DNA of 64,000 nt, taken from the IMG/VR virus record IMGVR_UViG_3300037743_000223, positions 1 through 64,000 of that record, one strand, 5' to 3'. Positions 60,264-61,526 of this stretch are shown in pieces. The DNA comes from a virus. Under the pieces are notes generated by a model. The model did no database searches, was not told where the DNA came from, and saw nothing but the letters and a program-made list of their open reading frames with translations. The position numbers and the translations under genes were made by a program. The stretch's first letter is position 1. Each line of letters begins with the position of its first letter.

Positions 60264-61526
60264 ATGGGGGTGAAGCTCATGGTCGAGGTGCTTGACCACG
60301 CGCCGAGTGACTGGACTCAGTCTGAGCGGCTGATCGTGGTGGCGATCGCCGAACAGGCGAACGACAAGACCCGGCGTGGGTTCCCGGGCATCGAGCTGAT
60401 CGCGCATCGCGCCGGGGTGGACGTCGACACCGTCTCGCGGACGCTGCGACGGATGGCCAAGAAGGGGACCGAGCTTCGGCTTCCGGCCGGGACCGACAAG
60501 CTCGGCCGGACGGTGTACGCCCATCGATCCCACCGGACCGTTTACGAGATCCCGAAGCTGTGCCCGATGGGCGATCACCAGACGAGCGCGTGCCTAGAAA
60601 GGGCGGACGGTGGTCCGGCCATTAGCGCCGAGGGGGAGCCTGCGGAAGCCGAGGAAACGCCGGACGCTGGTCCGCCCATTGCGCCAGAAAGCCCGGACCC
60701 TGGTCCGGCCATTAGCCAGGAAAGGGCGGACGGTGGTCCGCAGCCGGAGGCAGAAAGGCCGGACGGTGGTCCGGAAAGGGCGGACGGTGGTCCGCAAAGG
60801 CCGGACGGTGGTCCGGCCCTTCCCCTCAATCCCCTCACATCCCCTCAGGGGGGTGTGGGGGGAGACCGCAACCCATCGCCTCCGCCTGCATCCCCGCCAG
60901 CCGGCAAGCCAAGCCAGCCGTCGCTGATCTCGCTCCACTCGGTGAAGCTGCCGGAGGCCGTAGATCTGATCTACCGCTGGGGACTCTGGAACGGCTACCG
61001 CGACACCACGCCGGAAGAGGCGCGCGAGGTTCACGTGGCATTCCGGCAGCGGTACGGGTCCAAGCCGGTCGGCTACATCCGGAAGATGGCCGGCTCGGAC
61101 GGCGGCGGCTTCGATGACCTGTTCCGCGAGGTCCGGGACCGGAGCGCCGCATCGGCCAGGGCGGCGATCGAGGTACTGGAGCGGACCGAGCCGGACTGCG
61201 AGCATGGCACCCGCGCTGGGCGGGCCACGCACCCGGCCACAGGAGCCCTGCTCTGCCCGATGTGCCGGGCCGGCGTGAACGTGGTCGCGGCGAACGGCGC
61301 GACCACGGACGCACCGGTTGCCGCGGTTGTGGATGCCTACCGGCTCGCCTACCGGGCCATGCTCAACGCAGCACCTCGTTCGTCGCTGCTGATCGACATC
61401 ACCCAGCAGGCCGCCGCGTTGCTCAGCCGGGGCGCTGACCCTGGGCTGCTCGTTGACCTGGCCCGCCGTGCTGGCGCACGCGGCGAAGGGCTCATCACCG
61501 CCGCCACCCGAGGAGGGCAAGCATGA
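60264..61526 (+). CDS. replication initiator / replisome organiser candidate (N-terminal wHTH, central ERADGGP repeats)
   Basis: ATG 60264; wHTH-like N-terminus (IELIAHRAGVDVDTVSRTLRRMAKKG); directly upstream of and overlapping dnaB; contains iterons. Confidence 0.6.
   Translation: MGVKLMVEVLDHAPSDWTQSERLIVVAIAEQANDKTRRGFPGIELIAHRAGVDVDTVSRTLRRMAKKGTELRLPAGTDKLGRTVYAHRSHRTVYEIPKLCPMGDHQTSACLERADGGPAISAEGEPAEAEETPDAGPPIAPESPDPGPAISQERADGGPQPEAERPDGGPERADGGPQRPDGGPALPLNPLTSPQGGVGGDRNPSPPPASPPAGKPSQPSLISLHSVKLPEAVDLIYRWGLWNGYRDTTPEEAREVHVAFRQRYGSKPVGYIRKMAGSDGGGFDDLFREVRDRSAASARAAIEVLERTEPDCEHGTRAGRATHPATGALLCPMCRAGVNVVAANGATTDAPVAAVVDAYRLAYRAMLNAAPRSSLLIDITQQAAALLSRGADPGLLVDLARRAGARGEGLITAATRGGQA
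60604..60815 (+). repeat. seven iterons CGGAC-N4-GTCCG (candidate origin of replication inside initiator gene)
   Basis: Copies start at 60604, 60661, 60694, 60727, 60760, 60781, 60802; extended consensus GAAAGGSCGGACGGTGGTCCG. Confidence 0.75.

Follow-up and report, generated by a model that had tools for sequence, protein, structure and literature searches.

Does the gene that directly precedes dnaB in an actinobacterial phage carry, within its own coding sequence, the origin from which the phage replicates? The question is raised by positions 1-64,000 of the IMG/VR virus record IMGVR_UViG_3300037743_000223 (64,000 nt, the whole stretch of DNA analysed, called the window here), which is the genome of a temperate tailed phage, or a prophage, from a high-GC actinomycete. 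An earlier note on this DNA had pointed to seven palindromic repeats (iterons) in the gene immediately upstream of dnaB as a candidate origin laid out as in phage lambda. That interpretation is supported by the DNA-level conservation of the sites in homologues: the seven palindromes, together with a triplet of CCCCTCA motifs beside the last of them, probably form the phage replication origin, and binding of the sites by the protein whose gene contains them is predicted with somewhat greater confidence. The genes and domains concerned are:

60264-61526, plus strand: initiator gene, 420 aa; in its product a disordered linker joins the winged-helix N-terminal domain to a helical C-terminal domain that has a Cys/His motif
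60264-60599, plus strand: coding for residues 1-112, a DNA-binding domain of winged-helix type that presumably reads the iterons
60948-61523, plus strand: coding for the C-terminal helical domain, ~residues 229-420, the presumed helicase-recruiting part
61523-62866, plus strand: DnaB-type replicative helicase gene, directly 3' of the initiator gene

An exact search of the window places CGGAC-N4-GTCCG at 60604, 60661, 60694, 60727, 60760, 60781 and 60802, with spacings of 57, 33, 33, 33, 21 and 21 bp; a repeat finder recovers the same seven copies, and Tandem Repeats Finder reports one 33-bp array and one 21-bp array. All seven lie in frame inside the open reading frame (ORF) 60264-61526 and encode E[RTS][AP]D[GAP]GP, and the positions, spacings and reading-frame placement upstream of dnaB first reported for them are all correct. 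The cluster is not random: chance gives a mean of 0.43 copies and a maximum of 3 in the whole window (100 dinucleotide-preserving shuffles), and an eighth exact copy, at 24484, lacks the matching flank and is unrelated. The extended form AAAGSS-CGGAC-N4-GTCCG, with up to two mismatches allowed, matches 11 times against 0.46 expected, and only within 60598-60821; copies 2 and 3 differ from the extended consensus of the earlier note in flank and spacer (GAAACGC...GCTG and GAAAGCC...CCTG). The 3' flank sCCATT repeats the 5' flank AAAGGs in mirror form, which is why four of the 11 matches fall on the minus strand, and the full site is therefore a palindrome of 20-26 bp, (AAAG)GsCGGAC-N4-GTCCGsCC(ATT), of which the 5-bp inverted repeat with 4-bp spacer originally described is the confirmed core. 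The individual sites are:

60598-60623, core 60604-60617: iteron 1, a full 26-bp palindrome AAAGGGCGGACGGTGGTCCGGCCATT
60655-60680, core 60661-60674: iteron 2, spacer GCTG
60688-60713, core 60694-60707: iteron 3, spacer CCTG
60721-60740, core 60727-60740: iteron 4
60754-60773, core 60760-60773: iteron 5, which opens the 21-bp-spaced triplet
60775-60794, core 60781-60794: iteron 6
60796-60821, core 60802-60815: iteron 7

Homologues of the initiator comprise 14 proteins of 37-53% amino-acid identity from Micromonospora, Catenuloplanes, Actinoplanes and metagenomes, with DNA from nine loci scanned for palindromes over ~10 kb each. In eight of the nine loci CGGAC-N4-GTCCG occurs at the same gene position in 4-7 exact copies, with zero copies outside the initiator linker in the ~10 kb of each; three more IMG/VR viral contigs have copies, one of them a duplicate of locus L003. 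Across 11 distinct loci the ten arm bases are invariant in 63 of 63 copies, the 4-base spacer takes 17 forms (the GG of the peptide giving way to HR, QG, QS, KS, DG, EG, SG, AG or PG), and Asp is preceded by A, P, S or T, precisely the four residues that NCG codons specify. Two copies each in L004 and L006 lie in another reading frame and yield KARTVVRP instead of ESPDGGP, with the DNA GAAAGCCCGGACGGTGGTCCGG unchanged. Comparison of the DNA repeat with the peptide repeat, by which the earlier note had proposed to check its reading, thus finds the palindromes kept even where the peptide differs; retention of the peptide with loss of the palindromes, which it had named as contrary evidence, is the opposite of what is seen.

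Codon usage in the repeat segment of the window is unlike that of its surroundings. Gly is encoded by GGT in 12 of 13 cases (11.5% in window genes, 1 of 33 in the rest of the initiator gene), Glu by GAA in 7 of 11 (8.5% in window genes) and Arg by AGG in 5 of 5 (6.8%), and the G+C content at third codon positions (GC3) is 0.62, against 0.86 and 0.84 in the flanking domains. Across loci the iteron codons are NGT in 48 of 48 and CCG in 48 of 48 cases, whereas four-fold third positions of identical residues agree in 41% of cross-locus pairs in the N-terminal and 48% in the C-terminal domain; the linker alone is more alike in nucleotides than in amino acids. From the rare codons, the GC3 dip and the 100% third-position conservation it follows that selection acts on the DNA, and the pattern expected of a coding repeat, a conserved peptide with synonymous sites free, is not observed.

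In one close homologue and in more distant relatives the sites change and the layout is kept. The ninth homologue locus, L008 (Actinoplanes), has zero CGGAC sites and, at the same gene position, four copies of GGGTGGCC-N4-GGCCACCC plus a half-site, which differ from the standard site at two positions per half-site; the AAAG flank is retained, the spacings are 57, 45, 33 and 22 bp, and 0.24 copies are expected. (In this locus the initiator is followed by a 387-bp gap, L008:6260-6647, and then by a 316-aa protein with the DnaB_C part only; the prophage may be decaying, or its helicase gene may be mis-called.) In P0004 both the N-terminal domain and the repeats are divergent. An exhaustive profile-free search gave 697 cluster representatives, 303 of them at E <= 1e-10, many sharing the N-terminal domain only. 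The 160 proteins examined consisted of the window protein, the first-search homologues and cluster representatives among the matches listed; 95 of them contain at least three repeats of a 5-mer peptide (one mismatch allowed, whole protein scanned), some of these being low-complexity matches elsewhere in the protein. In many of the proteins, repeats with a period of 11 or 7 aa directly follow the winged helix, and the motifs found there include ERVAPRP, GGTTVPP, KGDAATSP, GVTVVTP, PERRP and EGATDPGA. A metagenome scan with one such subgroup gave 18 loci with other palindromes at the same gene position, and the palindromes of distant loci are:

GGCGGGAC-N4-GTCCCkCC: four copies, spacing 34, 22, 22
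GGGGGGGC-CACA-GCCCCsCC: four copies, spacing 33, 22, 21
GGsGGCAC-N4-GTGCCkCC: three copies
GTCCGCCTGsCGGAC: three copies, spacing 21, 21
CAGTGTCCG-N7-CGGACACTG: five copies

Since varied palindromes stand at the same position in relatives, the feature belongs to a large, so far unannotated initiator family in which the site sequence differs between subfamilies and the 33/21-22 bp spacing grammar is kept. BLAST of the region and of the window protein against 50,697 isolate phage genomes gave zero matches, as it did for the distant family members P0027 and P0090, a related-locus search of viral contigs with P0027 and P0024 found zero relatives, and the exact 21-bp-spaced double-iteron pattern has zero matches in GTDB representative genomes. 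A looser two-site pattern returned from genomes, among the matches listed, mostly unrelated arrays (cyanobacterial, Bacteroidota) and no new family member, and from viral contigs L134 as the sole family addition among the matches listed; a scan of viral contigs for the L008-type site gave 25 single matches, all unrelated. Tandem arrays with the CGGAC-N4-GTCCG core and other flanks, unrelated to the family and apparently intergenic, occur in IMG/VR at L140:12583-12640, L141:4123-4235, L147:5020-5132 and L151:7140-7256, with periods of 21, 33 and 23 bp; they could be other origins or operators.

A second element adjoins the last iteron in the window, followed by a run of G residues:

60822-60847, plus strand: three CCCCTCA motifs (60822-60828, 60831-60837 and 60841-60847), a candidate unwinding or helicase-loading element
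60848-60864, plus strand: G-run GGGGGGTGTGGGGGGAG, which could pair with the last CCCC(TCA)

Tandem Repeats Finder reports a 10-bp period in the CCCCTCA stretch, and in 10 of 10 full-gene loci, L008 included, CYCTCA or CCGTCA recurs downstream of the last iteron, at about +7, +17 and +32. The element is kept across reading frames, where it encodes PLNPLTSPQ, PSPQIPSKNIPS or LTVIEPSKFNPQ; it is also present in L011, in a looser form in L134, and in nine of 17 distant metagenome loci, with 11-bp spacing in L195 and L196. In seven of ten loci, the window not being one of them, the 30-mer at the CCCCTCA site ranks in the bottom five for stability within +-2 kb. By analogy with lambda, the triplet may be the counterpart of the AT-rich region of that phage, as an opening or helicase-loading site. 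The G-run is specific to the window and not conserved in homologues. A G-quadruplex or i-motif formed by the C-tracts at 60817-60847 was rejected as a conserved feature because L004, L006 and L011 keep CCCTCA without C4 tracts.

The protein encoded around these sites, whose start MGVKLM agrees with its homologues, has two ordered parts. An AlphaFold2 model built on 15 sequences has predicted local distance difference test scores (pLDDT) above 90 at residues 1-112 and 230-417 and of ~40 at residues 113-226; the iterons encode about residues 112-186 and so fall in the predicted disordered linker. In the N-terminal domain HTH_36 (PF13730) matches residues 18-68 with 25.8 bits against a cut-off of 25, and is matched in nine of 15 family members. 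Matches to the PHROG category 'replication initiation (O-like)' are weak for the window protein (E 3e-4 to 2e-3), stronger for the relatives P0023 and P0090 (4e-7 to 1e-6), and reach 2.5e-21 for the best relative; Foldseek against viral models (BFVD) returns phage helix-turn-helix proteins, including the lambda GpO N-terminal domain (5e-4) and a 'replication protein O'. The C-terminal domain has zero Pfam or PHROG matches and carries a conserved motif, C-E-H-G-T...H-P...C-P-x-C-R, of which C312, H314, G315, C331 and C334 are invariant or nearly so among homologues. Two Cys/His clusters are conserved across the family and may be metal sites: the winged-helix domain ends with C100-P-x3-H105-x4-C110 (60561-60596), and the C-terminal domain contains C312-E-H-G-T...C331-P-x-C334-R (61194-61266).

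The dnaB gene follows without a gap, its ATG overlapping the initiator stop codon (ATGA), and is identified by DnaB_C (E 1.1e-68), the DnaB N-terminal domain (8.9e-21) and phrog_19 (5e-88). The downstream gene is thus of the helicase version (P22 gp12-like) and not of the lambda P-loader version, and the order initiator then dnaB is found in nine of 11 homologue gene maps, including that of P0005, which is known without its DNA. The parts of a lambda-O-like architecture, namely a winged-helix N-terminal domain, a site-bearing disordered linker, a C-terminal domain and an adjoining helicase gene, are seen here.

A course of initiation, from the identity of the binding protein to wrapping, opening and helicase recruitment, can be inferred from these parts. 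Early transcription would supply the initiator and the phage DnaB together, by translational coupling at the observed gene overlap. Dimers of the N-terminal winged-helix domain would fill the 20-26 bp palindromes, and the 33- and 21-bp spacings, ~3 and 2 helical turns, would put these dimers roughly on one face of the duplex to give a wrapped, O-some-like complex. Strain in the complex would open the neighbouring low-stability stretch with its three CCCCTCA motifs one turn apart; the C-terminal domain (CEHGT...CPxCR) would load the co-translated phage DnaB on the opened strands, and host primase and polymerase would complete the replisome. A peptide dictated by the DNA would be tolerated, since the linker-coding segment that contains the sites is one where disorder is predicted, and such a tolerant linker would let the iteron sequence, which is observed to vary, diversify together with the DNA-binding domain across the family.

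Several results weigh against this origin model. No true AT-rich tract lies beside the iterons in the window; the post-iteron 30-mers of the window are just moderately less stable than the mean (-43 vs -48 kcal/mol), and DNA of lower stability is found 5' of the initiator gene. GC skew is uninformative for origin placement at the scale of the window. The similarity of the window protein's own N-terminal domain to lambda O is weak (E ~1e-3), and Foldseek against the PDB gives generic winged-helix matches only (E > 0.08), so that the C-terminal domain receives no structural assignment. Codon statistics within a single locus overstate significance, because repeat copies in one genome are not independent, and the argument for DNA-level selection is carried by the cross-locus conservation of the sequences.

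The alternative that best withstands the evidence is that the initiator-bound sites serve autoregulation or copy control, as an operator or a roadblock throttling the C-terminal half and dnaB, with the origin elsewhere. Operators are typically palindromic sites for a winged-helix dimer, the array lies inside the initiator-dnaB transcription unit, and the least stable DNA near the initiator gene lies upstream of it, at 60043-60180. Seven phased sites with a 33/21-bp grammar and a second conserved element at a fixed distance are nevertheless origin-like, the promoter region and the remainder of the window contain zero copies of the extended motif, and the identical layout is the origin in lambda (PMC7466680). 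An exclusively regulatory array is judged unlikely, and since the two functions are compatible an operator role may coexist with the origin role.

Less probable is that another protein binds the sites, as a partition centromere or as the target of a repressor or host factor, their placement in the initiator gene being incidental. Arrays of short palindromes are also known as centromere-like sites, and CGGAC-N4-GTCCG arrays do occur in unrelated intergenic contexts of other viral contigs; but binding by a different protein is made improbable because the array always travels with the initiator family, at the same intragenic position despite different gene neighbourhoods, and because the site sequence changes between initiator subfamilies. 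Of the genes examined near the array, in a window that was annotated in part, none was of ParA/ParB type. Equally slight is the chance that the palindromes function as mRNA or single-stranded-DNA hairpins, for translational pausing between domains, RNA stabilisation or primosome assembly. The region as a single strand does fold far better than shuffles (z = -4.06), and the L008 variant alters both arms symmetrically so that pairing is kept, but a dimer site would be just as likely to change symmetrically, the arms show zero compensatory variation within the family (63 of 63 identical), the helical-turn spacing and the conserved AAAG and CCATT flanks are features of duplex recognition, and there are zero Rfam matches. 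A pure peptide repeat, that is, a functional or tolerated (E)R[AP]DGGP linker whose DNA likeness comes from recent tandem duplication and gene conversion, would fit repeats that are in frame and multiples of 3, a peptide motif that recurs in homologues and a predicted disorder common for repeat linkers, but is essentially excluded by the four copies (L004, L006) that read the same DNA in another frame and by the codon data, since rare codons are invariant among loci that otherwise agree at 41-48% of synonymous sites, variable residues track degenerate bases (NCG giving A/P/S/T and NGT giving G/R/S), and relatives swap the whole peptide motif and retain palindromy and spacing.

The origin thus predicted shares a number of features with known systems and differs from each in others. 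Gene O of lambda has the origin in its middle, made up of iterons bound by O and an AT-rich tract beside them; lambda and Shiga toxin (Stx) phages have 4-6 dyad-symmetric iterons bound by the O N-terminal domain, the Stx phages six, and extra iterons add residues to a part of O uninvolved in DNA binding (PMC7466680). The window is like lambda in having intragenic dyad iterons, here seven, an O-like N-terminal domain and an adjoining second element. Unlike lambda, its iteron sequences are unrelated, it has a C-rich CCCCTCA triplet in ~70% GC DNA where lambda has its AT-rich tract, the C-terminal domain of its initiator is without detectable O similarity (that of the N-terminal domain being weak, as given above), and the next gene encodes a phage DnaB, whereas that of lambda encodes the P loader for host DnaB.

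In Salmonella phage P22 the O-type initiator gene 18 contains the origin and is followed by gene 12, which encodes a phage DnaB-type helicase, the same gene logic as 60264-61526 followed by 61523-62866 in the window; P22 is, however, an enterobacterial lambdoid phage, and kinship in sequence is not known to go further than the class of the N-terminal domain. G38P of Bacillus phage SPP1 binds repeated boxes inside its own gene (oriL), and loader and helicase genes follow; SPP1 differs in protein family, in repeat type, in its separate loader G39P and in its low-GC Firmicute host. Iteron plasmids (pPS10/RepA, RK2/TrfA, P1 RepA) likewise have phased initiator-binding repeats by an unwinding element and winged-helix initiators, but their repeats are direct, bound by monomers and outside the rep gene. 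A plasmid-type iteron replicon (RepA/TrfA/pi) is not what is found in the window, where the sites are palindromic and inside the gene.

The nearest isolate example found is gp55-gp53 of Thermobifida phage P1312 (KT021004), in which the 385-aa 'hypothetical' gp55 is encoded just upstream of dnaB. gp55 has an N-terminal domain matching the PHROG 'replication initiation protein' and a Cys-rich C-terminal part; it is distantly related to the window protein and has no BLAST match with it. The gp55 gene (L207:1773-1837, 1974-2039) contains three 22-bp-spaced palindromes CGTACCCC-N6-GGGGT and two 33-bp repeats with GTGCAC-N3-GTGCAC, which are likely an unrecognised intragenic origin in an isolated phage. 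A published analysis had placed the P1312 origin elsewhere by GC skew (PMC4569894). For extrachromosomal mycobacteriophage prophages the origin has been suspected upstream of or within repA by analogy with lambda, and no repeated motifs were found (PMC7157519). The mycobacteriophage RepA is alike in being an actinobacteriophage initiator with an N-terminal helix-turn-helix, but belongs to another protein family and acts in prophage maintenance with parABS, whereas the window phage bears an integrase. No earlier description of the iterons of this initiator family was found in the literature searched, which is not proof of novelty.

The window system is most likely a classical lambda/P22-type arrangement in an unstudied phage lineage and not a new principle; the CCCTCA triplet and the family-wide diversification of specificity could be its more novel parts. 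A broader generalisation is at present only tentative: high-GC actinobacterial prophages would share a family-wide origin grammar of 3-7 palindromes with 33/21-22 bp spacing, placed in linker codons and diversified in specificity along with the winged helix, and opening and loading would use a CCCTCA triplet, one turn apart, in place of an AT-rich DNA unwinding element, as a new type of element recognised by the C-terminal domain, the phage DnaB or a host factor. The question raised is how an origin opens in ~70% GC DNA without an AT-rich tract.

For temperate phages of the Micromonosporaceae, a family with few genetic tools and for which mapped phage origins were not found, the analysis gives a concrete candidate origin (~60.6-60.85 kb) together with its initiator, and the 2.6-kb initiator-ori-dnaB cassette is a candidate vector replicon. 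Within the initiator family, DNA-binding domains and their sites form a series of naturally matched pairs, each site encoded within the gene of its own reader, and this series is useful for studying the co-evolution of a recognition code under overlapping coding constraints. Peptide repeats of 11-aa or 7-aa period following an HTH_36 domain can serve as an annotation marker for phage origins.

The remainder of the window has a long, rightward early region and, among its other genes:

1965-4811: tape-measure protein
6964-9351: tail protein
10142-11161: endolysin
29141-30595: large serine integrase

The lysis and integrase modules are separated by a leftward (minus-strand) gene block at 12900-24400, which may be moron or defence cargo or an inserted element; one of its products is FtsK/SpoIIIE-like (16059-18344), and another combines a GmrSD_C nuclease with a helix-hairpin-helix (14282-15580). 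The 553-aa product of the plus-strand gene at 26495-28156, matched by PHROG as 'RNA-binding protein', has a TROVE (Ro60-like) domain (E 2e-20). Y-RNA-like partners are usual for Ro proteins; an Rfam search of the repeat region, and one of the whole window at gathering thresholds, found zero RNA families. Directly 5' of the initiator gene, a 75-aa ORF on the minus strand (59917-60144) has a Phd/YefM antitoxin match below the Pfam cut-off (E 3e-5, 24 bits vs 29.8). Just 3' of dnaB, a 190-aa ORF on the plus strand (62995-63567) has a Cys-rich C-terminal part with CxxCxGxG-like motifs (CSGCGGTGRCPECWGTGG...CERCEGGGGC) that resemble DnaJ-type zinc fingers; in L005, L006, L007 and L009 a second, ~250-aa protein with DnaB_C only follows dnaB instead of this Cys-rich ORF.

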